NCBI GenBank assembly: GCA_965224465.1
Contig: OZ245049.1
Span: 3,780,001-3,812,000, forward strand
Reading direction: 5' to 3'
DNA: 32,000 bases
From: Flavobacteriaceae bacterium
GTDB taxonomy: Bacteria; Bacteroidota; Bacteroidia; Flavobacteriales; Flavobacteriaceae
A program made the translations under genes and the position numbers. Positions 12,721-32,000 of the stretch are shown here, in pieces. Each line of letters opens with the position of its first letter. Positions within the stretch are counted from its first letter, which is position 1. The notes below the pieces were generated by a model. That model did not search any database. It worked only from the letters and a program-made list of their open reading frames with translations, and was not told the DNA's origin.

Positions 12721-12750
12721 AAGGAAGTGTTACAAAACACTTCCTTTTTT
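12721..12750 (+). terminator. Rho-independent terminator-like hairpin between the two hcp genes
   Basis: AAGGAAGTGTT-acaa-AACACTTCCTT (11-bp perfect stem, 4-nt loop) followed by TTTT; preceded by an A-run. Confidence 0.6.
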
Positions 12751-15216: not shown

Positions 15217-16032
15217 ATGAATACAAATACTGAAATACTACTAAATCATTTCAACCATGGTCTTACCAATGTGTATGGCGTAGAATGTTTTTTTAAAGAA
15301 AGCAAGAATTTGGTGAGTTATATAGTAGAAGTAACTTATAAAGCAGTTGAAGAAAGTGATTATTTACTGAAACTTACAAAAAAACGATGCTTTATTAATA
15401 AGTTAGAGCCTAAAAGCCAAATAGATGTGTTAGCACAAAGGTGTGCGGATGTTATATATCCTATAGTTTTTCAAATATCAGCTTTTGGTATTTTAACTAA
15501 AGAAAAAGTTGTGAATTTTGAAGAAATAAAACAGCGATGGAAAAGCACTTTAAAAGAATTAAAAAGGGAGTTTAAAGGCGACTATTGTAAACAGTATTTT
15601 GCGCAAATGGAAGCTAGTTTTAGAACAGAAGAAGTGTTTTATGAAAACATAAAAAACGATTTTTTATATGCACTCTTTTTTCTGAGTTTTCCTGCGTTAT
15701 ATTCAAAACATCAAACAAAGAAGGGGCTTGTTATAAAACTACCTGTTGTGGCTTATAACGATCCCGTATCTTTTGTAGGGACGCAAAAAAGTGTGTTTAC
15801 AAACAAAAAAGTATATGAACTTTATTTTAAAGGTATTGATTATGAGAATAACACCTTGGAAATAGAGCAATTAATTGATAGAGAAAGTTTTGTACTTGCT
15901 AAAGTAAAAGCAATTTATAATGCATTAAAAGAAGATGGTATTACTATTACTATAACCATGTTAAAAGAACGACAAATAAGAGAAGTCTTAAAAGAAAAGA
16001 AAAAAAATTGGTTTAATATTTTTAAAAAATAA
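15217..16032 (+). CDS. Hypothetical protein (271 aa) between vgrG and the PAAR-like gene; possible adaptor or chaperone
   Basis: Tightly packed in the operon (8 nt after the small ORF, 4 nt before the next gene). No signal peptide and no motif I recognise. Confidence 0.6.
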   Translation: MNTNTEILLNHFNHGLTNVYGVECFFKESKNLVSYIVEVTYKAVEESDYLLKLTKKRCFINKLEPKSQIDVLAQRCADVIYPIVFQISAFGILTKEKVVNFEEIKQRWKSTLKELKREFKGDYCKQYFAQMEASFRTEEVFYENIKNDFLYALFFLSFPALYSKHQTKKGLVIKLPVVAYNDPVSFVGTQKSVFTNKKVYELYFKGIDYENNTLEIEQLIDRESFVLAKVKAIYNALKEDGITITITMLKERQIREVLKEKKKNWFNIFKK

Positions 16033-16036: not shown

Positions 16037-16522
16037 ATGAGCGATGTTGCTATAGTGTGTCAAGGTGCTATGTGTAAATGTAAATATGGTTTTACACCAG
16101 ACACCTTTAAAATTGTAAGCACCCATAAAGAATACGTAAACGAGTCTAATGGCTCATCTAAAATGATTGCGACTACCTTGGATATTGGGCAACCTTTCCA
16201 AGCCAAAACTTTTGGGCAATGTAAATTACAACCTTCATCAAGTGGGTATTTACCATGCGTACCCGCCATAACACAATGGCAAGATTTTTATAAAAAAGTT
16301 ACGATAAGTAACAATGGTAAAATTTTAACAGAAGATAGCAAAGCAATATGTGCTATTGCAGGTAGCCCATGTGTTGAGTTTACTTGGCACGGGCAAATTG
16401 GTGCGCCAAGTCAATCACAAGCAGCAGAAGCAGACAATCAGGTGCATAGTCAGATAAACCCGTTAGCGAGTCCTAAAGGGGCAAAAGAAGAACCTGTTAA
16501 TCATATATTAACCATTAATTAA
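16037..16522 (+). CDS. DUF4280 (PAAR-like) domain protein
   Basis: 'VCQGAMCKCKYGFTPDTFKIV...ATTLDIGQPFQAKTFGQCKL....LPCVPAITQWQ...ILTEDSKAICAIAGSPCVEFTWHGQ' follows the DUF4280 pattern C.C..G..P..L.V...D...FG.C...PC.P....W...L...S...C..G.....GQ. A ~40-aa polar C-terminal tail follows. Confidence 0.75.
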   Translation: MSDVAIVCQGAMCKCKYGFTPDTFKIVSTHKEYVNESNGSSKMIATTLDIGQPFQAKTFGQCKLQPSSSGYLPCVPAITQWQDFYKKVTISNNGKILTEDSKAICAIAGSPCVEFTWHGQIGAPSQSQAAEADNQVHSQINPLASPKGAKEEPVNHILTIN

Positions 16523-16530: not shown

Positions 16531-19428
16531 ATGCCTCACGATAAAAAGAAGAAGCCTTACGATTATTCAAAAGATGATGTAAAAAGGTCTAAAGGTAGCT
16601 ATCAAAAAGTAATTGTAGCCGACCAAAAAAAATTAGATACTGGTATTGTAAAGAAAAGAATTTATAAAAGGTATTATGTTTTTGAAATACAATTAAATCA
16701 AAAAGTTAACTTTAAATTAAAGGTTCTCAATGCAAAAAACATAAATGAAACTGGGCAAAATGTGTACTGGATATTTCAAGACTCAACGAATTTCGAAAAA
16801 CATGTATACGGATCTTTTGAAAGCCATGAAAATAAAAACGACTTTCAGACCCATTTAAATACTCTTAATATAGGTACTAAGTATGAAGTAGCATTTTTTG
16901 AAGATGGGAGTGAAAATCCAGATTATATACACTATACAGAGGAAAGTACAAAATGTATAGGGAAAAATTATCTACCTACAAACCCTTTTAAAAGTAATAG
17001 AAAAAAAAGAGAAGGAATACTTTTGGGTAGCGTATCATATACGCCAACAGTATTAGGAAAAGGATTATGGATAGAAGGTATTAATTATACTCCTGAGTTT
17101 GAAAGTCAAGGAGCATTTATGATTGCTGTTAGCGAACCACAGATACTTAATTTATATGTAGAAAAAAGATATCGCCCAGAAAAAATTGTTAGAGAATCAG
17201 GGGTTATTACAGATCAGGAAGATACCACTCATGTAACCCAAGAACTTACCTATGGTAATATGTTAGATATACATATAAACTTACACAATATATTAGATGA
17301 TTATACCTGTACTTTAGGCGTTTTTTATGAAGATACATCTATGAGTGAAGGTTACTCAAGAATTATAGATTTAGATCAGAATAAGAAAGACAATCCTTCT
17401 TTAGATTATAACCGAAAATTTATTGAAGAGTTAGTAGTTGATTTACGTTGGGCAGGTAGATCAAAACATAAAGAAGGAAAAGATGATGAAGATTCTCTGC
17501 AAGACTATAAAATGGTGCTTACGTTTAGACCAACAAATGCAGATGAAAAATCACATGCCAAAGACTACCCAATTATAACAAGAGAAATTACGTTTACCGT
17601 AAATTACAAAGGGAATTTTAGTTATGACGAGCATGAACCTAGTTATATAACGCAAGTAGTAAAAGTACATAAACCACCATTGGTAAGTCAATCGTTTGAG
17701 GACTGTAGATACACAAGTTTATCCCTTAAGATAGGAAATCAGCCCAAATTTAATCTTTTGTATGAAGAAAAAGATGGGTCATTATCAGGTAAGTGTACTG
17801 ACAATAAAACAGCCGTTTATCAATTGGTAGCTGGCAATGTAGGTAATGTTATTCCTGTACTCATTGAAATTGATGCAGAGGTTTCAACATGTGAAGATAG
17901 CACGCTAAAGCATCAAAACAATACCTTTAATATCGAAGATATTATTCCATTAGAATTTAAAAAAGGAAAAGGAGTTTGGAAATATATAAAAAACAAGAAT
18001 ATTTTTCCTGAAGTGCAACCCTTTACTTTGGTTGGGAAAATTACAGAAAGCAGCTTGGCGTTTAATGCAGCATACCCCTATCAAGCATGGAGTGAAAGTA
18101 CATTCTTATTTAAATACCTCACTTGGCAGATAGATCCAATAGAACTATTTATTGGTGTGCGTAGCTGTAGATATGTACGTACTCCCTCTATTTATATATA
18201 TCCTGATATGGTATGGTCATTACACTTTAATTATGGTATAAAAGAAAACGAGATCCTTTATTTTCAAAATAAAAAAGTAAACTTAATATTTGGCTATGCT
18301 AACTATATGGATTATATAAAAGATGCTGTCTTATGGATTTATGAACCGTTTAAAGAATATTTTGACACGTTTTTCCCAAATGGAAACCAAGATAAATTAG
18401 AAGAACTTGTTAAAGCACTTGGGCTAGATGATGCTAAAACCTATGCCAGATTAGGCTTACATGTAAGATATGATGGTGATAAAGAAATAGATTATACAGC
18501 CATAACAAGATATAAAGCTTATATGTACTATCTTATTTTTCAGTTTGTTATGGTTTCTCTTGCCGTAGATTTATTTATATTATATCTAACCAGAGGAAAA
18601 GCATTAGAGGGCAAAGCACTAAAATTACAGAGAACGTTAAAAAGGGTAAAGAAGAGAATAAAGTCTATAGAAGAAGCAACAGAACTGGAATTTGCAATAT
18701 TATACCCAAAAATCAATGCCAATGCAGGGATCTACCGAATATCACAAGAAAATGGTGAAATTGCAACCATTATAGAAGCGACCATACAAGCAAAACCATT
18801 AATAGGCTTAAATGTGAAGTGTAAATTTGATCTTAATGAGAAAAAAGGGGTAAGTTTAATTGATAAAAAAGGGAAAGAACATAAAATAAAAAAGTTTAAA
18901 TGGTTAGAAAAACTAGTAGCAACTTTTGAATTAGATGGTCAAATAAATACAGATATTAATATAAAGTACAATACCCATTCACAAAAATTTACTACCAATG
19001 AAAATGGTGTAAAGCAAGAGTTGAAAAACGGGTATATACTTAAGAATAAAGGATCTGTAGTTGGGTATGCTGAATTGAAAGGTAAAATTGTTCTACCTGT
19101 TTCTTCTAGGGCAAACGCAATTTCCTTACATATTACGGCTAGTGCTGATACTGATTTTGGATTTAGTGAAGCTAAGGTTTTTGGAATTGATACTATTGGG
19201 CCCTTTTTTAGAATAGAATATACAATCGAAGAGTTTTCTTTAAATGTTAATATAGATGTAGTAGCTAAAAAAGGAAGAAAAACTCTTTATGATATTAAAA
19301 AAGCATTTTTAGAATTTTTTGGAATTGATACTAATGAGGAAGGTTTTGAAAAAATGTTTTTTGAAGAAAAAAAAATATTACTCCCAAAATTGTATTTATT
19401 TGATCCTTTAAGACAATTTAAAAAATAA
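16531..19428 (+). CDS. Large uncharacterised protein (965 aa), candidate T6SS cargo effector
   Basis: Lies 8 nt downstream of the PAAR-like gene and 6 nt upstream of the lipoprotein array. No signal peptide. One strongly hydrophobic segment 'AYMYYLIFQFVMVSLAVDLFILYLT' (about nt 18517..18591) is followed by a basic stretch. No catalytic motif recognised. Confidence 0.8.
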   Translation: MPHDKKKKPYDYSKDDVKRSKGSYQKVIVADQKKLDTGIVKKRIYKRYYVFEIQLNQKVNFKLKVLNAKNINETGQNVYWIFQDSTNFEKHVYGSFESHENKNDFQTHLNTLNIGTKYEVAFFEDGSENPDYIHYTEESTKCIGKNYLPTNPFKSNRKKREGILLGSVSYTPTVLGKGLWIEGINYTPEFESQGAFMIAVSEPQILNLYVEKRYRPEKIVRESGVITDQEDTTHVTQELTYGNMLDIHINLHNILDDYTCTLGVFYEDTSMSEGYSRIIDLDQNKKDNPSLDYNRKFIEELVVDLRWAGRSKHKEGKDDEDSLQDYKMVLTFRPTNADEKSHAKDYPIITREITFTVNYKGNFSYDEHEPSYITQVVKVHKPPLVSQSFEDCRYTSLSLKIGNQPKFNLLYEEKDGSLSGKCTDNKTAVYQLVAGNVGNVIPVLIEIDAEVSTCEDSTLKHQNNTFNIEDIIPLEFKKGKGVWKYIKNKNIFPEVQPFTLVGKITESSLAFNAAYPYQAWSESTFLFKYLTWQIDPIELFIGVRSCRYVRTPSIYIYPDMVWSLHFNYGIKENEILYFQNKKVNLIFGYANYMDYIKDAVLWIYEPFKEYFDTFFPNGNQDKLEELVKALGLDDAKTYARLGLHVRYDGDKEIDYTAITRYKAYMYYLIFQFVMVSLAVDLFILYLTRGKALEGKALKLQRTLKRVKKRIKSIEEATELEFAILYPKINANAGIYRISQENGEIATIIEATIQAKPLIGLNVKCKFDLNEKKGVSLIDKKGKEHKIKKFKWLEKLVATFELDGQINTDINIKYNTHSQKFTTNENGVKQELKNGYILKNKGSVVGYAELKGKIVLPVSSRANAISLHITASADTDFGFSEAKVFGIDTIGPFFRIEYTIEEFSLNVNIDVVAKKGRKTLYDIKKAFLEFFGIDTNEEGFEKMFFEEKKILLPKLYLFDPLRQFKK

Positions 19429-19434: not shown

Positions 19435-20508
19435 ATGAATTTTAAAATCTATTATCTCCTATTTGCTTTTTCATTTATAGGATGCTCACAAAATAAAAAA
19501 ACTGATACTTATACGATGAAATTAGATACTTATATAAATGACATATTAAAAAATGTTAAACATTCTATTGATGAAGAAGTGTTTTTTTTATCAATAAGAG
19601 CGTCAAAATCAACTTATAATATTCGGGTTAATGATATGTCGATTAAACAATCTTTTGATTATGAAGATGATAAAAAACAAAGGGTTTCACTAAACTTTCA
19701 TAATCTCAATAAAACATTTAAAAATTCAGGTAAACAAAGAATCTCTTTTAGTATTTATCCATTTAATAGAGACAGATTTAAAGCAAACGATAGAATAAAA
19801 ATTACTATTGAGAAATCAGATAAAACAGGTAATCTTACAGATTATATTGAATATAAGCCGAAAATGATTGACGATGCAGAAACTCCTGAGTTTACTGACA
19901 CAGAAGTGCATGAAGGAAGCTTTGAGTTTGAAGCAAAATTACCTTATAAAAAACAAATAGACTGGTCTGAGTCTAAAAGTTTAAAAGATCAAGAAAATAC
20001 AGAGCAAGAAGTACTAGAGGCGTATAAAGAAGTGATGAGATTATATGCAGAAGGAGATTTAGACAGTTTGTTAGAACTCTACAAACCTATTTTTCAAGAT
20101 GAGGCGCAGTCTGTATATGCAACTAAAGAAAAAGATTATAGGCTATCTTATGAATTAAACTGGGAACGTTTACATCCGTTTTTTTATAAATCAAAACCTA
20201 GATTAGATGCTGATTATGAATTAAAATTTTATGCAGACGGTAGATTGGTTACTTTAGAAAAGAAAAAAAACACGGCTTTAAGTTGTAACAAAAGTGCATT
20301 ATCCATCATATACGATAAAGATTTTGATAAATTCCCTGACAACTTGTTTGTAAGTGCCAAAGATTTAATAATGTTTGGAGATGGTACGATTCCGAAAAAA
20401 GAAATGGAAATATACTTATTCTTCTATAAACCAAAAGGATCAAATACTTTAAAATTAGCTACAGATATTTTTAGAAAAGAAAAATTATTAAATCCAATAG
20501 AAGATTAA
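19435..20508 (+). CDS. Array lipoprotein L1 (type A; putative immunity)
   Basis: 357 aa. MNFKIYYLLFAFSFIGCSQNKK is a lipobox. The conserved core 'GSFEFEAKLPYKKQIDWSES...EVLEAYKEVMRLYAEGDLDSLLELYKPIF' is shared with L2-L10. Confidence 0.85.
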   Translation: MNFKIYYLLFAFSFIGCSQNKKTDTYTMKLDTYINDILKNVKHSIDEEVFFLSIRASKSTYNIRVNDMSIKQSFDYEDDKKQRVSLNFHNLNKTFKNSGKQRISFSIYPFNRDRFKANDRIKITIEKSDKTGNLTDYIEYKPKMIDDAETPEFTDTEVHEGSFEFEAKLPYKKQIDWSESKSLKDQENTEQEVLEAYKEVMRLYAEGDLDSLLELYKPIFQDEAQSVYATKEKDYRLSYELNWERLHPFFYKSKPRLDADYELKFYADGRLVTLEKKKNTALSCNKSALSIIYDKDFDKFPDNLFVSAKDLIMFGDGTIPKKEMEIYLFFYKPKGSNTLKLATDIFRKEKLLNPIED

Positions 20509-21611
20509 TGAGATTAGGTAAACACATATTTCAGCATATAAAGATCGTTTTTGTGATGAGTCTTGTTTTTTGTACCGCATGTTCACAAACAAAAAATCAA
20601 AAAAAACTAGATAAAATGGCGACCAAAATAGACACTTATATAAACACCATATTAAAAAACGTAAAACACTATCCAGAAGAACCTGTTTATTTTATAGGTA
20701 GCACTGGTTCATATAAATACTACGAAATTAAGATAAATGATGTAATAGTCGTGCAAAACTATTTTTTAAAAGGTGAGGATACTTCTTCTCTTAGGAGATT
20801 TAGTAGTATCAACAATGCTCTTAATAAACAGGGCAAGCAAAAATTATCGTTTGCCCTCTTTCCTGAGGATGGTAAAACGTTTAAGTCCAATGATTGGGTT
20901 GAATTATCGATAGAAACTATGGATCAATTTAGAGAAACAAAAGAAATTTTCACGTTTGAACCTCCTATGAAATCTGATGGAGAAACCTCGGAGCATATTG
21001 GTTTAGAAAGCTATTCGGGAAGCTTTGAGTTTGAAGGAAAATTACCTTATAAAAAACAAATAGATTGGTCTGAATCTAATAGCTTAAAAGATCAAAAAAA
21101 CATAGAGCAAGAAGTGCTAGAGGCGTATAAAGAAGTGATGAGATTATATGCGGAAGGAGATTTAGACAGTTTGTTAGAACTCTACAAGCCTATTTTTCTA
21201 GACGAAGCACAGTCTGTATATGCTACTAAAGAAAAAGATTATAGGCTATCTTATGAATTAAACTGGGAACGTTTACATCCATTTTTTTATAAATCAAAAC
21301 CTACATTAGATGCGGATTATGAATTAAAATTTTATGCAGACGGTAGATTGGTTACTTTAGAAAAGAAAAAAAACACGGCTTTAAGTTATAACAAAAGTGC
21401 ATTATCCATCATATACGATAAAGATTTTGATAAATTCCCTGATGGCCTTACTAGAGCAAATAGGGATGTAGTAATGTTTGAAGATGTTGCCACTCCTAAA
21501 AAAGAAATGGAATTATACTTATTCTTCTATAAACCAAAAGGATCAAATACCTTAAAATTAGCTACAGATGTTTTTAGAGAGGAAGAATTATTAAATCCAA
21601 TAGAAGATTAA
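20508..21611 (+). CDS. Array lipoprotein L2 (type B)
   Basis: 367 aa. MRLGKHIFQHIKIVFVMSLVFCTACSQTK. The start ATG overlaps the L1 TAA by 1 nt. Confidence 0.85.
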   Translation: MRLGKHIFQHIKIVFVMSLVFCTACSQTKNQKKLDKMATKIDTYINTILKNVKHYPEEPVYFIGSTGSYKYYEIKINDVIVVQNYFLKGEDTSSLRRFSSINNALNKQGKQKLSFALFPEDGKTFKSNDWVELSIETMDQFRETKEIFTFEPPMKSDGETSEHIGLESYSGSFEFEGKLPYKKQIDWSESNSLKDQKNIEQEVLEAYKEVMRLYAEGDLDSLLELYKPIFLDEAQSVYATKEKDYRLSYELNWERLHPFFYKSKPTLDADYELKFYADGRLVTLEKKKNTALSYNKSALSIIYDKDFDKFPDGLTRANRDVVMFEDVATPKKEMELYLFFYKPKGSNTLKLATDVFREEELLNPIED

Positions 21612-22711
21612 TGAGATTAGGTAAACACATATTTCAGCATATAAAGATCGTTTTTGTGATGAGTCTTGTTTTTTGCACCGCTTGTGGGCAAACAAAAAAT
21701 CAAAAAAAACTAGATGAAATGGCTATCAAAATAGACACTTATATAAATACCATATTAAAAAATGTAAAACACTACCCAGAAGAACCTGTTTATTTAGTAG
21801 ATCTCTCTTCTCCATCAACATACTATGAAATTAAAGTAAATAATATAATAGTTGAGGAAAGTTATACAAATAATGAAGGGTCTTTTCCTATTAAATTATT
21901 TAGCAGTGTAAATGATGCTATCAATAAAGAAGGCAAGCAAAAAGTAACGTTTACTCTATTTCCTGCAGAAGATAAAACATTTAAATCTAATAGTTGGGTT
22001 GAAATATCTATAGAAACTATAAATCAATTTAGAGAAACAAAAGAAATTTTCACTTATGAACCTCCTATGAAATCTGATGGAGAAACCTCTGAACATATTG
22101 GTTTAGAAAGTTATTCGGGAAGCTTTGAGTTTGAAGCAAAATTACCTTATAAAAAACAAATAGATTGGTCTGAGTCTAAAAGCCTAAAAGAACAAAAAAA
22201 CATAGAACAAGAAGTGCTAGAGGCGTATAAAGAAGTAATGAGATTATATGCAGAAGGAGATATAGACAGTTTATTAGAACTCTATAAACCTATTTTTCAA
22301 GATGAGGCACAGTCTGTATATACTACTAAAGACAAAAAAGGTTGGGTAAATTACCGATTGAAATGGGAACGTTTACATCCATTTTTTTATAAATCAAAAC
22401 CTATATTAGATACTGATTATGAATTAAAATTTTATGCAGAGGGTAGATTAGTTACTTTAGAAAAGAAAAAAGATACTGCTTTAAGTTATAACAAAAGTGC
22501 ATTATCCATCATATACGATAAAGATTTTGATAAATTTACTGACAACTTATTTGTAAGTGCCAAAGATTTAATAATGTTTGGAGATGGTACGATTCCTAAA
22601 AAAGAAATGGAATTATACTTATTCTTTTATAAACCAAAAGGATCAAATACTTTAAAATTAGCTACAGATATTTTTAGAGAGGAAAAATTATTAAATCCAA
22701 TAGAAGATTAA
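21611..22711 (+). CDS. Array lipoprotein L3 (type B)
   Basis: 366 aa, TAATG overlap with L2. Carries the variant modules 'TTKDKKGWVNYRLKW' and 'FTDNLFVSAKDLIMFGDGTIP'. Confidence 0.85.
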   Translation: MRLGKHIFQHIKIVFVMSLVFCTACGQTKNQKKLDEMAIKIDTYINTILKNVKHYPEEPVYLVDLSSPSTYYEIKVNNIIVEESYTNNEGSFPIKLFSSVNDAINKEGKQKVTFTLFPAEDKTFKSNSWVEISIETINQFRETKEIFTYEPPMKSDGETSEHIGLESYSGSFEFEAKLPYKKQIDWSESKSLKEQKNIEQEVLEAYKEVMRLYAEGDIDSLLELYKPIFQDEAQSVYTTKDKKGWVNYRLKWERLHPFFYKSKPILDTDYELKFYAEGRLVTLEKKKDTALSYNKSALSIIYDKDFDKFTDNLFVSAKDLIMFGDGTIPKKEMELYLFFYKPKGSNTLKLATDIFREEKLLNPIED

Positions 22712-23811
22712 TGAGATTAGGTAAATACATATTTCAGCATATAAAGATCATTTTTTTGATGAGTCTTGTTTTTTGCACCGCATGTTCACAAACAAAAAAT
22801 CAAAAAAAACTAGATGAAATGGCTATCAAAATCGACACTTATATAAATACCATATTAAAAAACGTAAAACACTATCCAGAAGAACCTGTTTATTTTATAA
22901 GTAGCCCAGGTCCATATAAATACTACGAAATTAAAATAAATGATATTATAGTTATACAAAATTATTTTTCAAAAGGTGATGCCCCTTCTTATAGGAATTT
23001 TAGTAGTATCAACAATGCTCTTAATAAAAAGGGCAAGCAAAATTTAACGTTTACTCTATTCCCTTCAAAAGATAAAACGTTTCAGTCCAATGATTGGGTT
23101 GAGTTATCGATAGAAACTATGGATCAATTTAGAGAAAGAAAAGAAATTTTCACGTTTGAACCTCCTATGAAATCTGATGGAGAAACCTCGGAGCATATTG
23201 GTTTAGAAAGCTATTCGGGAAGCTTTGAGTTTGAAGCAAAATTACCTTATAAAAAACAAATAGATTGGTCTGAGTCTAAAAGTTTAAAAGATCAAAAAAA
23301 TACAGAGCAAGAAGTGCTAGAGGCGTATAAAGAAGTAATGAGATTATATGCAGAAGGAGATTTAGACAGTTTGTTAGAACTCTACAAACCTATTTTTCAA
23401 GATGAGGCGCAGTCTGTATATGCAACTAAAGAAAAAAAGAGTAGGCTAAGTTACCGATTAAACTGGGAACGTTTACATCCATTTTTTTATAAATCAAAAC
23501 CTACATTAGATGCTGATTATGAATTAAAATTTTATGCAGAGGGTAGATTGGTTACTTTAGAAAAGAAAAAAAACACGGCTTTAAGTTGTAACAAAAGTGC
23601 ATTATCCATCATATACGATAAAGATTTTGATAAATTCCCTGATGGCCTTACTAGAGCAAATAGGGATGTAGTAATGTTTGAAGATGTTGCCACTCCTAAA
23701 AAAGAAATGGAATTATACTTATTCTTCTATAAACCAAAAGGATCAAATACCTTAAAATTAGCTACAGATGTTTTTAGAGAGGAAGAATTATTAAATCCAA
23801 TAGAAGATTAA
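22711..23811 (+). CDS. Array lipoprotein L4 (type B)
   Basis: 366 aa, TAATG overlap. Carries the modules 'ATKEKKSRLSYRLNW' and 'FPDGLTRANRDVVMFEDVATP'. Same protein as L9 except three residues in the last 14 aa (DVFREEE vs DIFRKEK). Confidence 0.85.
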   Translation: MRLGKYIFQHIKIIFLMSLVFCTACSQTKNQKKLDEMAIKIDTYINTILKNVKHYPEEPVYFISSPGPYKYYEIKINDIIVIQNYFSKGDAPSYRNFSSINNALNKKGKQNLTFTLFPSKDKTFQSNDWVELSIETMDQFRERKEIFTFEPPMKSDGETSEHIGLESYSGSFEFEAKLPYKKQIDWSESKSLKDQKNTEQEVLEAYKEVMRLYAEGDLDSLLELYKPIFQDEAQSVYATKEKKSRLSYRLNWERLHPFFYKSKPTLDADYELKFYAEGRLVTLEKKKNTALSCNKSALSIIYDKDFDKFPDGLTRANRDVVMFEDVATPKKEMELYLFFYKPKGSNTLKLATDVFREEELLNPIED

Positions 23812-24878
23812 TGAGATTAGGTAAACACATATTTCAGTATATAAAGATCATTTTTGTGATGAGTCTTGTTTTTTGCACCGCTTGTGGGCAAACAAAAAAT
23901 CAAAAAAAACTAGATGAAATGGCTGTCAAAATAGACACTTATGTGAATACCATATTAAAAAATGTAAAGTATTACCCAGAAGAACCTGTTTATTTAGTGG
24001 ATCTCTCTTCTTCATCAGGATATTACGAAATTAAAATAAATGATGTAATAGTCGAGCAAAACTATTTCTCAAAAGGTGAGGACCCTTCTTCTTTTAGGAG
24101 ATTTAGTAGTATCAACAATGCTCTTAATAAACAGGGCAAGCAAAAAATATCGTTTGCCCTGTTTTCTGAGGAATATAAAACGTTTCAGTCCAATGATTGG
24201 CTTGATGTATCGATAGAAACGATGGATCAATTTAGAGAAACAAAAGAAATTTTCACGTTTGAGCCTCCTATGAAATCTGATGGAGAAACCTCGGAGCATA
24301 TTGGTTTAGAAAGCTATTCGGGAAGCTTTGAGTTTGAAGCAAAATTACCTTATAAAAAACAAATAGATTGGTCTGAGTCTAAAAGTTTAAAAGATCAAAA
24401 AAATACAGAGCAAGAAGTGTTAGAGGCGTATAAAGAAGTGATGAGATTATATGCAGAAGGAGATTTAGACAGTTTGTTAGAACTCTACAAACCTATTTTT
24501 CAAGATGAGGCGCAGTCTGTATATGCAACTAAAGAAAAAGATTATAGGGTCTCTTATGAATTAAACTGGGAACGTTTACATCCATTTTTTTATAAATCAA
24601 AACCTAGATTAGATGCGGATTATGAATTAAAATTTTATGCAGACGGTAGATTGGTTACTTTAGATAAGAAAAAAAACACGGCTTTAAGTTGTAACAAAAG
24701 TGCATTATCCATCATATACGATAAAGATTTTGATAAAATGCCTGATGGTACAAGGGTAAATATAAAATATTTAAAAATGTTTGAGGATGGTGTGGTGCCT
24801 AAAATGGAAATGGAAATATACTTATTCTTTTATAAACCAAAAGGATCAAATACTTTAAAATTAGCTACAGATATTTAA
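23811..24878 (+). CDS. Array lipoprotein L5 (type B, lacks the last ~11 conserved residues)
   Basis: 355 aa, ending '...LKLATDI*' where the other members continue 'FR.E.LLNPIED'. The 3' end is replaced by the effector-3' relic. Confidence 0.8.
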   Translation: MRLGKHIFQYIKIIFVMSLVFCTACGQTKNQKKLDEMAVKIDTYVNTILKNVKYYPEEPVYLVDLSSSSGYYEIKINDVIVEQNYFSKGEDPSSFRRFSSINNALNKQGKQKISFALFSEEYKTFQSNDWLDVSIETMDQFRETKEIFTFEPPMKSDGETSEHIGLESYSGSFEFEAKLPYKKQIDWSESKSLKDQKNTEQEVLEAYKEVMRLYAEGDLDSLLELYKPIFQDEAQSVYATKEKDYRVSYELNWERLHPFFYKSKPRLDADYELKFYADGRLVTLDKKKNTALSCNKSALSIIYDKDFDKMPDGTRVNIKYLKMFEDGVVPKMEMEIYLFFYKPKGSNTLKLATDI

Positions 24879-24940
24879 AGAAAAAAAAATTTTACTACCG
24901 AAAATTTATTTATTTGATCCATTAAGAAATTTTAAAACAA
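24877..24940 (+). pseudogene. Relic of the 3' end of a second (variant) copy of the 965-aa effector gene
   Basis: About 80% nt identity by hand alignment to 19363..19425. It translates as KEKKILLPKIYLFDPLRNFK, versus EEKKILLPKLYLFDPLRQFKK* at the end of ORF 16531..19428. It has the same spacing to the following lipoprotein start. Confidence 0.75.
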
Positions 24941-24946
24941 TTGAAA

Positions 24947-26023
24947 ATGAAAATTATTAAATTTTGTAACCGATTACTATTGATATTTACATTAGTGGCT
25001 TGCTCACAAACAAAAAGTAAGCTAAAAATAAAAAACGATCTTAAAATTATGAAAATAGATAGCTATATTTCTAACCTTATAAAAAATGTGGAGCACTTTG
25101 GTGAGGAAAAAACATTTAATCTCGATGTGTGGGTAACAAAATCGAACTATAAAATACAAATAAATGATTTGCCAGTAGAAGAATGTTTTGACTATGAAAA
25201 TAATCAACATATTTTCCGAAGTTATCAAAGTGTTAATAGTGTTCTTAAAATAGGTAGTAAACAAAAAGTGTCTTTTAAAATATGGCCACTAGATAGAAAG
25301 ACCTTTCTAAGTACTGACAAGATTAAAATAACAATAGAGGAAATAGATCAAACAGGTGAATTAAGTGATTTTTTTATTTATAATCCTCCAATGTTAGATG
25401 ATGGGGAAACCCCAGAATATGTTGGCAAAGAAAGTTATTCGGGTAGTTTTGAATTTGAAGCAACTTTACCTTATAAAAAAGAAGTTGATTGGTTTAAATC
25501 CGAAGATTTAAGGAATTCACCAAATATTCAACAGGAAGTACTAGTAGCATACAAAGAAATAGGGCGGTTGTATGAAAGTGGGGATTTTGAAACTCTGTTA
25601 CAACTATATGATCCCATATTTAAAACTGAGGCACAATCCACTTTTGCTACTAAAGAAAGATTAGACTATTTAAATGTTCCTGACAGGATTTACCCTTTTT
25701 TATATAAATCGAAAGTTGTATTAGACCCCAATTATGAAATAAAATTTTATGCTGACGGAACATTAGTAGCTTTGAAAACGAAAACTTCTGAACGGAATTA
25801 TTCTAAATCACCATTAACGATTAGATATGATAAAGATTTTGATCTTTTGCCAGAGAGTGCAAATGTAAATTCTAAAGAATTAAAACTTAATCTCAGTGGT
25901 ACGATTCCTAAAAAAGAAATGGAATTATACTTATTCTTCTATAAACCAAAAGGATCAAATACCTTAAAATTAGCTACAGATGTTTTTAGAGAGGAAGAAT
26001 TATTAAATCCAATAGAAGATTAA
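24947..26023 (+). CDS. Array lipoprotein L6 (type A, divergent)
   Basis: ATG at 24947 (the ORF track starts at TTG 24941). MKIIKFCNRLLLIFTLVACSQTK is a lipobox. It diverges from type B through most of its length, but the last ~110 nt match the L4 3' end with no differences seen. Confidence 0.85.
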   Translation: MKIIKFCNRLLLIFTLVACSQTKSKLKIKNDLKIMKIDSYISNLIKNVEHFGEEKTFNLDVWVTKSNYKIQINDLPVEECFDYENNQHIFRSYQSVNSVLKIGSKQKVSFKIWPLDRKTFLSTDKIKITIEEIDQTGELSDFFIYNPPMLDDGETPEYVGKESYSGSFEFEATLPYKKEVDWFKSEDLRNSPNIQQEVLVAYKEIGRLYESGDFETLLQLYDPIFKTEAQSTFATKERLDYLNVPDRIYPFLYKSKVVLDPNYEIKFYADGTLVALKTKTSERNYSKSPLTIRYDKDFDLLPESANVNSKELKLNLSGTIPKKEMELYLFFYKPKGSNTLKLATDVFREEELLNPIED

Positions 26024-27120
26024 TGAGATTAGGTAAATACATATTTCAGCATATAAAGATCGTTTTTGTGATGAGTCTTGTTTTTTGCACCGCTTGTTCA
26101 CAAACAAAAAATCAAAAAAAACTAGATGAAATGGCTATTAAAATAGACACTTATATAAATACCATATTAAAAAATGTAAAACACTACCCAGAAGAACCTG
26201 TTTATTTAGTAGACCTCTCTTCTTCATCAGGATATTACGAAATTAAAATAAATGATGTTATAATTGATCAACATTATTTTTCAAAAGATTACCCTACCAC
26301 AATCAGAACTTATAGCAGTATCAACAATGCTCTTAATAAAGAAGGCAAGCAAAAAGTAACGTTTACTCTATTTCCTGCAGAAGATAAAACATTTAAATCT
26401 AATAGTTGGGTTGAAATATCTATAGAAACTATAAATCAATTTAGAGAAACAAAAGAAATTTTCACTTATGAACCTCCTATGAAATCTGATGGAGAAACCT
26501 CTGAACATATTGGTTTAGAAAGTTATTCGGGAAGCTTTGAGTTTGAAGCAAAATTACCTTATAAAAAACAAATAGATTGGTCTGAGTCTAAAAGCCTAAA
26601 AGAACAAAAAAACATAGAACAAGAAGTGCTAGAGGCGTATAAAGAAGTAATGAGATTATATGCAGAAGGAGATATAGACAGTTTATTAGAACTCTATAAA
26701 CCTATTTTTCAAGATGAGGCACAGTCTGTATATACTACTAAAGACAAAAAAGGTTGGGTAAATTACCGATTGAAATGGGAACGTTTACATCCATTTTTTT
26801 ATAAATCAAAACCTATATTAGATACTGATTATGAATTAAAATTTTATGCAGAGGGTAGATTAGTTACTTTAGAAAAGAAAAAAGATACTGCTTTAAGTTA
26901 TAACAAAAGTGCATTATCCATCATATACGATAAAGATTTTGATAAATTTACTGACAACTTATTTGTAAGTGCCAAAGATTTAATAATGTTTGGAGATGGT
27001 ACGATTCCGAAAAAAGAAATGGAATTATACTTATTCTTTTATAAACCAAAAGGATCAAATACTTTAAAATTAGCAACGGATATTTTTAGAAAAGAAAAAT
27101 TATTAAACGGAGAGGATTAA
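26023..27120 (+). CDS. Array lipoprotein L7 (type B)
   Basis: 365 aa. It has a unique N-terminal patch 'IIDQHYFSKDYPTTIRTY'; from ~aa 105 it is identical to L3 except the C-terminal 'FRKEKLLNGED'. Confidence 0.85.
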   Translation: MRLGKYIFQHIKIVFVMSLVFCTACSQTKNQKKLDEMAIKIDTYINTILKNVKHYPEEPVYLVDLSSSSGYYEIKINDVIIDQHYFSKDYPTTIRTYSSINNALNKEGKQKVTFTLFPAEDKTFKSNSWVEISIETINQFRETKEIFTYEPPMKSDGETSEHIGLESYSGSFEFEAKLPYKKQIDWSESKSLKEQKNIEQEVLEAYKEVMRLYAEGDIDSLLELYKPIFQDEAQSVYTTKDKKGWVNYRLKWERLHPFFYKSKPILDTDYELKFYAEGRLVTLEKKKDTALSYNKSALSIIYDKDFDKFTDNLFVSAKDLIMFGDGTIPKKEMELYLFFYKPKGSNTLKLATDIFRKEKLLNGED

Positions 27121-28220
27121 TGATATTTGGTAAACGTATATTTCAGCATATAAAAATCATTTTGGTAATGAGTCTTGTTTTTTGCACCGCATGTTCACAA
27201 ACAAAAAATCAAAAAAAACTAGATGAAATGGCTATCAAAATCGACACTTATATAAATACCATATTAAAAAACGTAAAACACTATCCAGAAGAACCTGTTT
27301 ATTTTATAAGTAGCCCAGGTCCATATAAATACTACGAAATTAAAATAAATGATATTATAGTTATACAAAATTATTTTTCAAAAGGTGATGCCCCTTCTTA
27401 TAGGAATTTTAGTAGTATCAACAATGCTCTTAATAAAAAGGGCAAGCAAAATTTAACGTTTACCCTATTTCCTTCAAAAGATAAAACGTTTCAGTCCAAT
27501 GATTGGGTTGAGTTATCGATAGAAACTATGGACCAATTTAGAGAAACAAAAGAAATTTTCACGTTTGAACCTCCTATGAAATCTGATGGAGAAACCTCGG
27601 AGCATATTGGTTTAGAAAGCTATTCGGGAAGCTTTGAGTTTGAAGCAAAATTACCTTATAAAAAACAAATAGATTGGTCTGAGTCTAAAAGCCTAAAAGA
27701 ACAAAAAAACATAGAACAAGAAGTGCTAGAGGCGTATAAAGAAGTAATGAGATTATATGCAGAAGGAGATATAGACAGTTTATTAGAACTCTATAAACCT
27801 ATTTTTCAAGATGAGGCACAGTCTGTATATACTACTAAAGACAAAAAAGGTTGGGTAAATTACCGATTGAAATGGGAACGTTTACATCCATTTTTTTATA
27901 AATCAAAACCTATATTAGATACTGATTATGAATTAAAATTTTATGCAGAGGGTAGATTAGTTACTTTAGAAAAGAAAAAAGATACTGCTTTAAGTTATAA
28001 CAAAAGTGCATTATCCATCATATACGATAAAGATTTTGATAAATTTACTGACAACTTATTTGTAAGTGCCAAAGATTTAATAATGTTTGGAGATGGTACG
28101 ATTCCTAAAAAAGAAATGGAATTATACTTATTCTTTTATAAACCAAAAGGATCAAATACTTTAAAATTAGCTACAGATATTTTTAGAGAGGAAAAATTAT
28201 TAAATCCAATAGAAGATTAA
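27120..28220 (+). CDS. Array lipoprotein L8 (type B, chimera of an L4-like N-half and an L3-like C-half)
   Basis: 366 aa with the variant leader MIFGKRIFQHIKIILVM. Residues ~17-180 match L4/L9 and residues ~180-366 match L3. Confidence 0.85.
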   Translation: MIFGKRIFQHIKIILVMSLVFCTACSQTKNQKKLDEMAIKIDTYINTILKNVKHYPEEPVYFISSPGPYKYYEIKINDIIVIQNYFSKGDAPSYRNFSSINNALNKKGKQNLTFTLFPSKDKTFQSNDWVELSIETMDQFRETKEIFTFEPPMKSDGETSEHIGLESYSGSFEFEAKLPYKKQIDWSESKSLKEQKNIEQEVLEAYKEVMRLYAEGDIDSLLELYKPIFQDEAQSVYTTKDKKGWVNYRLKWERLHPFFYKSKPILDTDYELKFYAEGRLVTLEKKKDTALSYNKSALSIIYDKDFDKFTDNLFVSAKDLIMFGDGTIPKKEMELYLFFYKPKGSNTLKLATDIFREEKLLNPIED

Positions 28221-29320
28221 TGAGATTAGGTAAATACATATTTCAGCATATAAAGATCATTTTTTTGATGAGTCTTGTTTTTTGCACCGCATGTTCACAA
28301 ACAAAAAATCAAAAAAAACTAGATGAAATGGCTATCAAAATCGACACTTATATAAATACCATATTAAAAAACGTAAAACACTATCCAGAAGAACCTGTTT
28401 ATTTTATAAGTAGCCCAGGTCCATATAAATACTACGAAATTAAAATAAATGATATTATAGTTATACAAAATTATTTTTCAAAAGGTGATGCCCCTTCTTA
28501 TAGGAATTTTAGTAGTATCAACAATGCTCTTAATAAAAAGGGCAAGCAAAATTTAACGTTTACTCTATTCCCTTCAAAAGATAAAACGTTTCAGTCCAAT
28601 GATTGGGTTGAGTTATCGATAGAAACTATGGATCAATTTAGAGAAAGAAAAGAAATTTTCACGTTTGAACCTCCTATGAAATCTGATGGAGAAACCTCGG
28701 AGCATATTGGTTTAGAAAGCTATTCGGGAAGCTTTGAGTTTGAAGCAAAATTACCTTATAAAAAACAAATAGATTGGTCTGAGTCTAAAAGTTTAAAAGA
28801 TCAAAAAAATACAGAGCAAGAAGTGCTAGAGGCGTATAAAGAAGTAATGAGATTATATGCAGAAGGAGATTTAGACAGTTTGTTAGAACTCTACAAACCT
28901 ATTTTTCAAGATGAGGCGCAGTCTGTATATGCAACTAAAGAAAAAAAGAGTAGGCTAAGTTACCGATTAAACTGGGAACGTTTACATCCATTTTTTTATA
29001 AATCAAAACCTACATTAGATGCTGATTATGAATTAAAATTTTATGCAGAGGGTAGATTGGTTACTTTAGAAAAGAAAAAAAACACGGCTTTAAGTTGTAA
29101 CAAAAGTGCATTATCCATCATATACGATAAAGATTTTGATAAATTCCCTGATGGCCTTACTAGAGCAAATAGGGATGTAGTAATGTTTGAAGATGTTGCC
29201 ACTCCTAAAAAAGAAATGGAATTATACTTATTCTTCTATAAACCAAAAGGATCAAATACTTTAAAATTAGCTACAGATATTTTTAGAAAAGAAAAATTAT
29301 TAAATCCAATAGAAGATTAA
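28220..29320 (+). CDS. Array lipoprotein L9 (type B; near-duplicate of L4)
   Basis: 366 aa. No nucleotide differences from L4 seen over ~1.03 kb from the start (offset 5509 bp). Confidence 0.85.
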   Translation: MRLGKYIFQHIKIIFLMSLVFCTACSQTKNQKKLDEMAIKIDTYINTILKNVKHYPEEPVYFISSPGPYKYYEIKINDIIVIQNYFSKGDAPSYRNFSSINNALNKKGKQNLTFTLFPSKDKTFQSNDWVELSIETMDQFRERKEIFTFEPPMKSDGETSEHIGLESYSGSFEFEAKLPYKKQIDWSESKSLKDQKNTEQEVLEAYKEVMRLYAEGDLDSLLELYKPIFQDEAQSVYATKEKKSRLSYRLNWERLHPFFYKSKPTLDADYELKFYAEGRLVTLEKKKNTALSCNKSALSIIYDKDFDKFPDGLTRANRDVVMFEDVATPKKEMELYLFFYKPKGSNTLKLATDIFRKEKLLNPIED

Positions 29321-29770
29321 TGAGATTAGGTAAACACATATTTCAGCATATAAAGATCATTTTTGTGATGAGTCTTGTTTTTTGCACCGCTTGTGGGCAA
29401 ACAAAAAGTAAGCTAAAAATAAAAAACGATCTTAAAATTATGAAAATAGATAGCTATATTTCTAACCTTATAAAAAATGTGGAGCACTTTGGTGAGGAAA
29501 AAACATTTAATCTCGATGTGTGGGTAACAAAATCGAACTATAAAATACAAATAAATGATTTGCCAGTAGAAGAATGTTTTGACTATGAAAATAATCAACA
29601 TATTTTCCGAAGTTATCAAAGTGTTAATAGTGTTCTTAAAATAGGTAGTAAACAAAAAGTGTCTTTTAAAATATGGCCACTAGATAGAAAGACCTTTCTA
29701 AGTACTGACAAGATTAAAATAACAATAGAGGAAATAGATCAAACAGGTGAATTAAGTGGTTTTTTTATTT
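29320..29770 (+). pseudogene. Array lipoprotein L10, 5' part (type-B leader fused to a type-A body), interrupted by IS4 copy B
   Basis: MRLGKHIFQHIKIIFVMSLVFCTACGQTK|SKLKIKNDLKIMKIDSY..., with the crossover inside 'caaacaaaaa'. The body is near-identical to L6. The frame resumes at 31350. Confidence 0.8.
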
Positions 29771-31344
29771 ACTCAAGTTTCGCACTTAGATAGATTTACG
29801 CAACCTCTTGGCAATTAAGTTTATGGGTATTTACTAGAAATCCAAAATTCTCAATATTCACTATTATTTTACGTGTAATTAACTCAATATCAATAGATTC
29901 AATCATCTTTTCCAAAACATCAATCACCAAACTGACAACTGCTAATATCCTGATGTTTAGCTTATTCTCTATATAATCTTGTTTTAAATCTTTAAACAAC
30001 CCTCCTATTGTTTCGTAGGCTTCCATTCTATATCGAATACTGGTGAGTAAATATTGAACCATTATAATGCTTATTTGTGCGATTTGAATATCAAAATTAG
30101 TGGACTGACATTTTCCAAGACCAAACAACTGCTTAGCTTCTTTAAAAAACACTTCTATGGACCATCTGATACTGTATATTTCAATAGCCTTTACGAATTT
30201 CAGTGTTGTGTCAGTTGATATTAACGTATGCCATTTGCCATTCTTTCCACGTTTTGAAATAAATACAGCAACCTTAAGACCGTCAATTTCAGTTATGTAA
30301 TGATGGTAGTAATAATTGAATTTACGGCATCGTTTTGGTTTTATTTTCTGTTTTTTGAGTTGTGACAAGGTTTTAATCTTTGATTTAACTTCAATTTTAC
30401 TGTTGTATTTATACATTCCTATAATATGAGTTAAGCTACTAATGTCCCGTAACTTTCTAAGTAATTTAACACTTGTAAACCAACTGTCTATTAAGATGTA
30501 ATCTACAGGTACCTTACGTTTTATAAGCCTTGAGAACATTTGCACCAACAAGTCTGTTTTCTTTTTATTGAGTTCCTGATACCTTTTTGCTGCAATTGTT
30601 TTACTACATCTCGGCGTTTTCTTTTGAAGTCTACGTTGCTTTGCTGTTAGTCCGTATTTTAATTTTGATGTTTTACTTTCACGGTGTAAACTAAAATCAA
30701 CAGGAATAAATACACTTCCGTTCCAGTAACCAGCAACAAGTAGTTTATAACCTAGGTAATACGTTTTTGATACATGGTTGTATATTTTTGAAACACCTTC
30801 AATTGTCTTTCCTGTTTTAGAAAGATCAGTATCATCAAAGATCAAGCATCTTGTAGCATCTTTAGATGGAGTAAAGAACTCTTCTTTTAATAGATATTGC
30901 TTCACAAACTGAGCTAGAAAAACCCTCCAATTTATCTTTTGATTTGCTAGGATTCGATAGTATGAATCTTTACCAGACTGACCTAATCCTTTGTCTTTAT
31001 TGCTTGTAAGTCCATGAATAGAGTCAAATCCAATAATAGGTAAAATTAAAAGTGTAGAAATCAAATTACCGAATGAAATCCCCGATTTCTTACACCAACT
31101 AAACTTGTTTTTAATTTTATTGAATCCTAAAATATTTAGATGTGCTTGTAGGTATTCTGAACTAAGCCAAATCTTATTAAATTTTCCTTTTATCTCCTGT
31201 GTTTTTGTGATATCTTCGTGTTCTAGCATGTTTTGTACTTTCTTGTTCGTACTTAAAAGTACAATAAAACCAGGGGATTACCTTGGTTTTCATGCTATTT
31301 ATTTTCACTTAAACACCTGTAAATGATGGGTGCGAAACTTGAGT
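29771..31344 (-). mobile_element. IS4-family insertion sequence, copy B (1574 bp)
   Basis: Same terminal inverted repeats (29771..29785 and 31330..31344). TSD TATTT (29766..29770 and 31345..31349). The uninterrupted target can be read in L6 at 25381..25395 (tttttatttataatc). Confidence 0.9.
29796..31229 (-). CDS. IS4-family DDE transposase (copy B)
   Basis: 477 aa, differing from copy A at about 15 residues; same YREK motif. Confidence 0.85.
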   Translation of the reverse strand: MLEHEDITKTQEIKGKFNKIWLSSEYLQAHLNILGFNKIKNKFSWCKKSGISFGNLISTLLILPIIGFDSIHGLTSNKDKGLGQSGKDSYYRILANQKINWRVFLAQFVKQYLLKEEFFTPSKDATRCLIFDDTDLSKTGKTIEGVSKIYNHVSKTYYLGYKLLVAGYWNGSVFIPVDFSLHRESKTSKLKYGLTAKQRRLQKKTPRCSKTIAAKRYQELNKKKTDLLVQMFSRLIKRKVPVDYILIDSWFTSVKLLRKLRDISSLTHIIGMYKYNSKIEVKSKIKTLSQLKKQKIKPKRCRKFNYYYHHYITEIDGLKVAVFISKRGKNGKWHTLISTDTTLKFVKAIEIYSIRWSIEVFFKEAKQLFGLGKCQSTNFDIQIAQISIIMVQYLLTSIRYRMEAYETIGGLFKDLKQDYIENKLNIRILAVVSLVIDVLEKMIESIDIELITRKIIVNIENFGFLVNTHKLNCQEVA

Positions 31345-31349
31345 TATTT

Positions 31350-31993
31350 ATAATCCTCCAATGTTAGATGATGGGGAAACCCCAGAATATGTTGGCAAAG
31401 AAAGTTATTCGGGTAGTTTTGAATTTGAAGCAACTTTACCTTATAAAAAAGAAGTTGATTGGTTTAAATTCGAAGATTTAAGGAATTCACCAAATATTCA
31501 ACAGGAAGTACTAGTAGCATACAAAGAAATAGGGCGGTTGTATGAAAGTGGGGATTTTGAAACTCTGTTACAACTATATGATCCCATATTTAAAACTGAG
31601 GCACAATCCACTTTTGCTACTAAAGAAAGATTAGACTATTTAAATGTTCCTGACAGGATTCACCCTTTTTTATATAAATCGAAAGTTGTATTAGATCCTA
31701 ATTATGAAATAAAATTTTATGCTGACGGAACATTAGTAGCTTTGAAAACGAAAACTTCTGAACGGAATTATTCTAAATCACCATTAACGATTAGATATGA
31801 TAAAGATTTTGATCTTTTGCCAGAGAGTGCAAATGTAAATTCTAAAGAATTAAAACTTAATCTCAGTGGTACGATTCCGAAAAAAGAAATGGAATTATAC
31901 TTATTCTTCTATAAACCAAAAGGATCAAATACTTTAAAATTAGCTACAGATATTTTTAGAGAGGAAAAATTATTAAATCCAATAGAAGATTAA
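31350..31993 (+). pseudogene. Array lipoprotein L10, 3' part
   Basis: Codon T(29770)+AT(31350..31351) restores '...FFIYNPPMLDDGETPEY...' exactly as in L6. The frame is open to TAA at 31991..31993. Confidence 0.8.
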
Positions 31994-32000
31994 TGAGATT
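31993..32000 (+). CDS. Start of a further array lipoprotein (L11), truncated by the window end
   Basis: 'TAATGAGATT' is the same stop/start overlap and 'MRL...' leader as the other type-B units. Confidence 0.6.

Follow-up and report, generated by a model that had tools for sequence, protein, structure and literature searches.

Background

In the Bte3/Bti3 pair of Bacteroides fragilis GA3, an effector of a type VI secretion system (T6SS), Bte3, is combined with the adaptor Ate3 of the BtapC family, the DUF4280 tip protein Pte3 and a lipoprotein immunity protein, Bti3 (PMC13402684). Bte3 is large and beta-rich, lacks an enzymatic signature and is toxic from the periplasm, and Bti3 is described as a beta-sandwich at the N-terminus with a helical part behind it; a single bti3 gene has been described, and orphan copies are rare (3 of 882 isolates) (PMC13402684). 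Here we describe a 32,000-nucleotide stretch of DNA from a Flavobacteriaceae bacterium, a marine Aquimarina (contig OZ245049.1, positions 3,780,001 to 3,812,000; below, the whole stretch is called the window and coordinates refer to it), in which ten paralogous lipoprotein genes, named L1 to L10, and the start of an eleventh lie directly downstream of a gene for a putative T6SS cargo effector of 965 residues.

Strings of immunity genes have been described in several other settings. In Vibrio, T6SS arrays of up to ~7 immunity genes are found 3' of an effector-immunity module, together with remnants of effector 3' ends (2017, PMC5361080). These arrays have been proposed to broaden protection, and the authors reject duplication in situ: the differing immunity types would have been acquired by horizontal gene transfer along with displaced effectors (PMC5361080). 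In the type VII secretion systems (T7SS) of Staphylococcus and Streptococcus, strings of non-identical esaG or tipC paralogues occur downstream of a polymorphic toxin (12 esaG genes in RN6390), and conserved blocks at their ends mediate homologous recombination that leads to chimeras, expansions and losses (Garrett et al. 2022, PMC9484751). The rAID loci of Bacteroidales are orphan arrays of T6SS immunity genes that have diverged from the cognate genes and are still protective; they are associated with a recombinase, are not linked to an effector, and mix many immunity families, e.g. SUKH (PMC12247911). On the basis of the comparisons described below, we propose, with a probability of roughly 70%, that the array in the window is a locally expanded bank of periplasmic lipoprotein immunity genes for a polymorphic cargo effector of the Bacteroidota T6SS(iii).

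Organisation of the array

The array runs from 19435 to 31993 and consists of ten same-strand paralogues encoding 355–367 residues, arranged head to tail, with an eleventh start codon at 31993. It contains the following features (ORF, supported as an open reading frame; AF2, AlphaFold2; IS, insertion sequence).

19435–20508, plus strand: L1, type A, 357 residues (ORF; lipobox FIGC/SQ; AF2 model with pLDDT 81)
20508–21611, plus strand: L2, type B, 367 residues (ORF)
21611–22711, plus strand: L3, type B, 366 residues (ORF)
22711–23811, plus strand: L4, type B, 366 residues, 99% identical to L9 (ORF)
23811–24878, plus strand: L5, type B, 355 residues, without the last 12 codons (ORF)
24874–24941, plus strand: relic of an effector 3' end, joined to the truncated end of L5 (~88% nucleotide identity to 19360–19428)
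24947–26023, plus strand: L6, divergent type A, 358 residues counted from the ATG, ~50% identical to the other copies
26023–27120, plus strand: L7, type B, 365 residues (ORF)
27120–28220, plus strand: L8, chimeric, with a 5' half of the L4/L9 type joined to a 3' half of the L3/L7 type
28220–29320, plus strand: L9, type B, 366 residues (ORF)
29320–29771, plus strand: 5' part of L10, B-type signal peptide and L6-type body
29772–31343, minus strand: IS4-family element of 1,572 bp that splits L10 (transposase at 29796–31229)
31351–31993, plus strand: 3' part of L10 (ORF whole after removal of the IS)
31993–32000, plus strand: beginning of the eleventh gene, L11, ATGAGATT, MR... (TAATG junction where the window ends)

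An ORF check reproduced the coordinates of all eleven genes and the regular ~1.1-kb spacing on one strand that had been reported in an initial annotation made from the sequence. The start of L6 is an ATG at 24947, and the ORF listing begins at a TTG further upstream, at 24941. Nine of the junctions between L genes read GATTAATGA, i.e. stop and start codon overlap by 1 nt in the sequence TAATG, again as annotated. These overlaps suggest translational coupling within one operon, and no terminator-like site was found in the array outside the IS. A scan for sigma-70 promoters gave fewer sites than were found in shuffled sequences, the sigma-70 consensus being uninformative for Bacteroidota.

The interruption of L10 by an IS, which had also been recognized initially, could be described precisely. 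The element belongs to the IS4 family (NCBIfam transpos_IS4_4, E=4e-116), has 14-bp terminal inverted repeats (CTCAAGTTTCGCAC), and is flanked by a 7-bp duplication of the target, TTATTTA, at 29765–29771 and 31344–31350, which identifies it as a simple insertion. When the element is removed, an intact ORF of 364 codons is restored, the product of which is 94% identical to L6. The IS is 94.8% identical to a second copy at 4037–5626, also on the minus strand, and this degree of identity suggests two lineages of the element, not one recent burst.

Between L5 and L6 lies a stretch of ~68 nt that aligns to the 3' end of the gene for the 965-residue protein, confirming the effector relic proposed earlier at this position. 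Its translation in frame 3 is KEKKILLPKIYLFDPLRNFK, and the counterpart in the effector is EEKKILLPKLYLFDPLRQFKK. At this one site a remnant of an effector is thus found between immunity-like genes, as in the Vibrio arrays; no such relic was found at the other nine L junctions.

The array could be followed up to the end of the window at position 32000. All distinct L sequences recovered from the source contig, a single contig of 5.24 Mb, correspond to L1–L10, which implies that L11 is identical to one of these, degraded or undetected.

The L protein family

Searches of Pfam, NCBIfam and PADLOC, and of PDB sequences with both a single sequence and a profile, gave no match for the L proteins, in line with the original impression that they belong to no described family. 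Nor did profile, PDB or Foldseek searches yield a significant match to a well-characterised non-immunity family, the outcome that had been named in advance as speaking decisively against an immunity role. A word-indexed homology search found only 19 close relatives, those with a named source being from Aquimarina, and the same type of search with a 70-sequence profile returned only close relatives that were already known. An exhaustive profile search identified 339 clusters at 50% identity, 141 of them at E<=1e-10, which consist mostly of proteins of 300–340 residues from Tenacibaculum, Cellulophaga, Flavobacterium and metagenomes. One homologue of the type-B genes, from Aquimarina sp. I32.4 (P0009), is labelled by NCBI as a 'TraB/GumN family protein'. 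We rejected this label, which appears to be spurious: no Pfam or NCBIfam hit was obtained even at E<=10, and the fold predicted for the family by AF2 is unrelated to that of TraB/GumN.

The lipobox cysteine is conserved in at least 90% of 70 diverse members of the family, and is followed by basic or polar residues (e.g. CSQTKNQKK, CSQNKKTD). The signal for lipoprotein export to the surface in Bacteroidota is acidic, of the type K-(D/E)2, SDDDD or SDDFE (PMC5080379), and the mature N-termini of the L proteins showed no match to it. Since the residues after the cysteine are unlike this export signal, the best prediction is that the L proteins are periplasm-facing lipoproteins, as had been suggested.

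The AF2 model of L1 (pLDDT 81, pTM 0.79) comprises an N-terminal beta-sandwich (residues ~49–166) and a C-terminal domain of three helices followed by about six strands. The order of secondary-structure elements in this latter domain agrees with that of NTF2-like/SnoaL-like folds, and in Foldseek searches with the L1 model the CaMKII hub domain, SnoaL-type cyclases and NXT1 recurred at a target TM-score of ~0.5, none of them significantly (best E-value 0.03). The initial guess of an NTF2/SnoaL-like fold is therefore backed by recurring hits, none of which is significant, and an NTF2-like C-terminal domain is plausible from the model.

The putative effector and its loading module

Upstream of the array, the following genes were identified in this AT-rich window (~30% GC).

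12132–12518, plus strand: hcp/tssD copy 1, a Bacteroidota-type Hcp (Pfam TssD PF17642, E=2e-52)
12793–13188, plus strand: hcp/tssD copy 2, divergent (Pfam TssD PF17642, E=8e-47)
13274–15046, plus strand: vgrG/tssI spike (matches to Phage_base_V, Phage_GPD and TIGR01646)
15217–16032, plus strand: BtapC/Ate3-like effector-specific adaptor, 271 residues (phmmer match to PDB 9jg8_A)
16037–16522, plus strand: PAAR-like tip protein, DUF4280 (Pfam, E=4e-20)
16531–19428, plus strand: putative cargo effector of 965 residues, uncharacterised family (homologues, AF2 model)

In the order hcp-hcp-vgrG-x-DUF4280-965 aa given in the initial annotation, the hcp, vgrG and DUF4280 genes were confirmed by matches in Pfam, NCBIfam and PDB, and the gene left unnamed could be assigned as an adaptor: its 271-residue product matches PDB entry 9jg8_A, 'Bacteroides T6SS Adapter Protein C', with E=2.1e-9 (phmmer). 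The DUF4280 protein aligns to the N-terminus of the partner chain in the same structure (PDB 9jg8_B, E=4e-22). The BtapC-like adaptor gene directly precedes the DUF4280 gene in all related loci. An adaptor of the BtapC/Ate3 family and a DUF4280 tip are thus encoded with the effector, and judged from these similarities the two genes represent the loading route described for Bte3 of B. fragilis (PMC13402684).

The L genes are adjacent to the effector gene and co-oriented with it within this vgrG/hcp/PAAR cluster. A strong terminator-like hairpin, with a 14-bp stem and a T-run, is present at 12718–12749 between the two divergent hcp genes, so that hcp copy 1 may be transcribed apart from hcp copy 2, vgrG, the effector gene and the array. 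In the window the adaptor gene directly follows vgrG. Three Aquimarina loci (L001–L003) carry 3–4 additional genes at this spot, encoding proteins of ~450–490, 220–235 and 220–265 residues, and in L001 also one of 236 residues; these may be a second effector-immunity set that was lost from the locus in the window.

For the 965-residue protein, no match was found in Pfam, NCBIfam and PADLOC or in PDB sequence searches with either a single sequence or a profile, and its 18 homologues all occur in Flavobacteriia-type loci. The AF2 model (pLDDT 69, pTM 0.44) shows beta-rich N-terminal domains, a strongly hydrophobic helix at residues 664–687 and long amphipathic beta-hairpins at ~720–920. The helix and hairpins suggest an attack on membranes, and a membrane-directed toxin acting in the periplasm is a reasonable interpretation of this model. 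Foldseek searches with the model gave only generic Ig/beta-sandwich multi-domain proteins at a TM-score of ~0.1. Five Aquimarina effectors that are ~60% identical vary more over their first 400 residues than in the middle part, and their identity drops to 34% at residues 841–880 (window 19051–19170), with 59–89% in the flanks; residues 841–880 are a candidate immunity-contact region, as judged from this sequence variability.

Conservation of the effector-L gene order

Profile hidden Markov models of the L family and the effector family were run on ten loci, two of which are repeats (L005 of L001, and L007 of L003). In seven out of seven independent loci with intact context, representing four genera, the order is adaptor, DUF4280 protein, effector homologue and one or more L genes. 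These seven loci are from three Aquimarina genomes, A. algicola, Lacinutrix mariniflava, Porphyromonas loveana and one Flavobacterium metagenome-assembled genome (MAG). The numbers of L genes are as follows.

Three Aquimarina genomes: 1–2 L genes after the effector gene, a single one in L002
A. algicola: 2 L genes after the effector gene
Lacinutrix mariniflava: ~7 L genes after the effector gene, one of them fragmented
Porphyromonas loveana (L009): 3 L genes, with a 149-residue effector fragment among them at 7842–8291 of that locus
A second Flavobacterium MAG (L010), besides these seven loci: ~9 L ORFs or fragments and an effector fragment at 9004–9990 of that locus

In L008, the locus of the Flavobacterium MAG among the seven, the protein encoded between the DUF4280 gene and the L gene was missed by HMMER, and was recognized by hhalign as a distant effector homologue (97.8% probability, ~21% identity). 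The two families therefore co-occur in seven loci of four genera, down to ~21% identity between effectors, which indicates that their association survives deep divergence. The Lacinutrix array has the same TAATG junctions and lipobox as the array in the window. L010, which contains no intact effector gene on its 16-kb stretch, resembles an orphan immunity island. Arrays of several copies, and relics of effector genes, are features that recur in the L family. It is mainly this recurrence across loci, of the effector-L association as well as of arrays and relics, that supports an immunity role, as evidence from gene context.

The number of L genes following the effector gene ranges from 1 to ~7 across the loci examined. 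The high copy number in the window, which had been considered far above the usual, is indeed high, but it is not unprecedented given the ~7 copies in Lacinutrix and the arrays described in other systems (PMC5361080, PMC9484751, PMC12247911).

The subdivision into types A and B is real, with the amendment that L10 is not a plain type-A gene as first assigned, but a chimera. A type-A gene directly follows the effector gene in the window and in one Aquimarina MAG, in agreement with the initial annotation; in Aquimarina sp. I32.4 the order is reversed, i.e. effector-B-A. We thus rejected the view that the cognate next to the effector is type A in every case, and since the order varies, the cognate copy cannot be read from position.

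Variation and recombination among the copies

Pairwise amino-acid identities between L proteins lie between 49%, for L6 and type B, and 99%, for L4 and L9, and most pairs of genes are 86–95% identical in nucleotides. The similarity is distributed in a mosaic fashion. L10 carries a type-B signal peptide on an L6-type body, and L9 is the same as L4 save for the last ~80 nt, where it matches L1. L1 itself is 95–100% identical in nucleotides to type B over its C-terminal half, compared to ~45–75% over the N-terminal half. For L1 versus L2, the N-domain has a synonymous divergence (dS) of 2.7 and the C-domain one of 0.25, i.e. about tenfold lower in the C-terminal half, indicating that recombination or gene conversion, and not selection alone, homogenises the C-terminal half and the junction block. 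One exact repeat found in the scan for exact matches is given below.

22112–23750, plus strand: segment of 1,639 bp from L3 nt 502 to L4 nt 1040 (exact-match scan), repeated exactly and in direct orientation at 27621–29259 (L8 nt 502 to L9 nt 1040), 5,509 bp apart

This repeat is the mark of a segmental duplication or conversion of very recent date, and within the array it is where an assembly error is most to be feared. A further exact stretch, of 674 bp, is common to L3 and L7.

The variation between L proteins is clustered at residues ~60–140, 245–255 and 315–335, and seven distinct N-domain alleles can be distinguished among the ten genes. The C-domains group by genome, and N-domain types A and B are common to several Aquimarina genomes. 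In comparisons with enough substitutions to allow an estimate, the ratio of nonsynonymous to synonymous substitution rates (dN/dS) is 0.2–0.6, which shows that the L copies are under purifying selection and maintained as proteins. L1–L4 and L6–L9 have their full length, only the last 12 codons are missing from L5, and L10 is whole once the IS is removed; all copies look functional by these sequence properties.

Proposed function and alternative explanations

The T6SS immunity reading of the initial annotation is supported by all of the computational evidence described above, and we infer immunity from the context of the genes. We propose that the BtapC-like adaptor and the PAAR-like DUF4280 tip probably serve to load the effector onto VgrG, and that the effector is probably delivered into the periplasm of rival Bacteroidota, where it would attack a membrane. 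The L protein, held by its lipidated cysteine on the periplasmic side, would bind effector that arrives from other cells or is made by the cell itself; the variable N-terminal beta-sandwich would probably make the contact, with the NTF2-like C-terminal domain as a conserved scaffold. One or two of the L copies would be cognate to the resident effector, and the remainder would be directed against allelic effectors of neighbouring strains. Transcription of the L genes together with the effector operon, and translational coupling to it, are probable. The array would have grown in place by unequal crossing-over and gene conversion between paralogues, by way of the near-identical 3' tail, the TAATG junction, the signal-peptide block and the conserved C-terminal half; in addition, at least one deletion of a second effector gene would have left its last ~68 nt before L6, and a recent IS insertion would have inactivated L10.

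Several observations weigh against this proposal. The link between the L proteins and the effector is drawn from gene context, and the 965-residue protein has no recognisable toxin domain and a model of moderate confidence. The N-domains of L4, L8 and L9 are identical, which points to dosage and not to breadth of protection, and dN/dS calculated at the level of regions shows no signal of positive or diversifying selection. The B copies are 79–99% identical to one another versus at most ~73% to any external homologue, in a comparison with few related genomes, which argues for local duplication rather than acquisition of foreign immunity genes. Finally, in three genomes the effector is found with both a type-A and a type-B gene, either of which can come first, so they may be two required partners and not alternative specificities.

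This last point leads to a different explanation, which we consider unlikely: a two-component immunity in which both A and B are needed, as a hetero-oligomer or for two effector activities, with the extra copies mainly raising expression of specificities already present, and not widening protection. At least one A and one B gene are indeed found with the effector in the window, an Aquimarina MAG and Aquimarina sp. I32.4, and both the identical N-domains of L4, L8 and L9 and the 1.6-kb exact repeat, as a very recent duplication, would fit a dosage effect. However, a single L gene follows the effector in Aquimarina L002, and the N-domains of L2, L3, L5 and L7 show 10–20% non-synonymous divergence with hypervariable patches, exceeding what would be expected for dosage duplicates under purifying selection. 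Less likely again is that the L proteins have no immunity function, and are maturation, export or activation factors tied to the effector, decoys, or an unrelated expanding lipoprotein family that travels with the locus. Their lack of homology to any known immunity family, with a function deduced from synteny, leaves room for such roles, but ten divergent tandem copies would be unexpected for an accessory factor, as would its presence behind effector relics or in arrays with effector fragments only (L010); moreover, the canonical place for an immunity gene is immediately 3' of the effector, its start codon overlapping or adjoining, and the roles of adaptor and tip are already taken by the BtapC-like and DUF4280 genes. 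The exact repeats of 1,639 bp and 674 bp exceed short-read resolution and could in principle reflect a mis-assembled or over-expanded repeat with a true copy number of 1–3. We regard such an artefact as very improbable: most units have unique variable segments, with seven N-domain alleles and most pairs 86–95% identical in nucleotides, the relic provides a unique landmark, as does the IS with its clean target duplication, the sequence comes from one contig of 5.24 Mb, and Lacinutrix has an independent array of ~7 copies with the same junction style.

A tentative extension of the immunity-bank proposal, which we rate clearly below it, is that the array is a self-diversifying immunity library and not just a passive stockpile. 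The uniform junctions of 3' tail, TAATG and signal peptide, together with the homogenised C-domain, would then serve as built-in recombination tracts by which N-terminal beta-sandwich cassettes are shuffled, leading to new specificities against polymorphic membrane-targeting effectors of marine Flavobacteriia. Such a library could be a functional counterpart, in T6SS(iii) interbacterial defence, of the cassette systems known from antigenic variation.

The surrounding region

The region upstream of the hcp genes is dense in IS remains (3122–3493, 7392–9797, and 11034–11312 and 11390–11590, both on the minus strand). These include an IstB (IS21) fragment, an IS66 unit complete with its three genes (orf1, TnpB and DDE transposase), another fragment resembling IstB and a duplicate of a 3' fragment of IS66. 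The auxiliary T6SS genes thus lie in a graveyard of IS elements that is prone to recombination.

A gene at 6488–7102, ~5 kb upstream of hcp, encodes a 204-residue protein with a Phage_lysozyme domain (E=2e-27), and an unannotated ORF of 276 codons adjoins it on the upstream side (5595–6425). These two genes could encode a second, cell-wall-targeting effector with its partner, or could be a phage remnant. A further ORF of 112 codons, at 10719–11057, has no Pfam hit; by eye only, its N-terminal half (…TGSTAWSASFVNWCLNESG…) resembles the catalytic-cysteine region of a peptidoglycan amidase or a CHAP-type enzyme, and its C-terminal half seems to result from reading on into IS debris. This ORF may represent an earlier effector that has been truncated.

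Significance and comparison with known systems

The locus defines a proposed pair of effector and immunity families, unannotated until now, for the Bacteroidota-type T6SS beyond the gut. Public data contain about 340 clusters of L proteins at 50% identity, none of them covered by a Pfam or NCBIfam model, and the family is now tied to the recently described loading route of BtapC/Ate3 adaptor and DUF4280 protein. With seven N-domain alleles on a shared scaffold, datable recombination and one relic, the array is a natural experiment on the growth of an immunity repertoire. If the L proteins are immunity proteins, the variable patches of the beta-sandwich would map the effector-binding surface, and the periplasmic or membrane target would then be traceable. 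The array does not change the current picture of T6SS biology.

Like Bte3/Bti3, the window encodes a putative cargo effector of the Bacteroidota T6SS(iii) with a dedicated adaptor, here the 271-residue BtapC homologue, and a DUF4280 protein. The gene orders differ, being bte3-bti3-orf1/2/3 in B. fragilis and adaptor-PAAR-effector-L in the window, as do the sizes of the effectors (768 versus 965 residues), and the L proteins of ~360 residues have a mixed alpha/beta C-terminal domain instead of a helical one. Compared by description only, the AF2 models of effector and L protein show a broadly similar theme to Bte3 and Bti3.

With the Vibrio arrays the locus shares both the position 3' of an effector and the presence of an effector 3' remnant. 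In contrast to those arrays, the members in the window belong to one family, most of the junctions are direct overlaps without relics, and the copies are mutually closest, not being closer to homologues from other strains than to their neighbours in the array. These differences imply that local duplication and gene conversion dominate in the window. The rAID arrays differ in that the array described here is fused to its own effector operon; in the window, up to position 32000, no recombinase was seen, and the only genes of this kind are IS4, IS66 and IS21 transposase genes. The esaG and tipC strings are alike in terms of process, as in both cases genes of one family recombine, and the L genes are likewise tandem paralogues that differ from one another, have conserved blocks at their ends and include chimeras; the secretion system, phylum and protein family are different, EsaG is cytoplasmic, and there is no sequence relationship to the L proteins. 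The L family is thus new, whereas this kind of array is already known from other systems, and the locus in the window combines a Vibrio-like position and relic with esaG-like recombination of paralogues in an unannotated family of marine Flavobacteriia.

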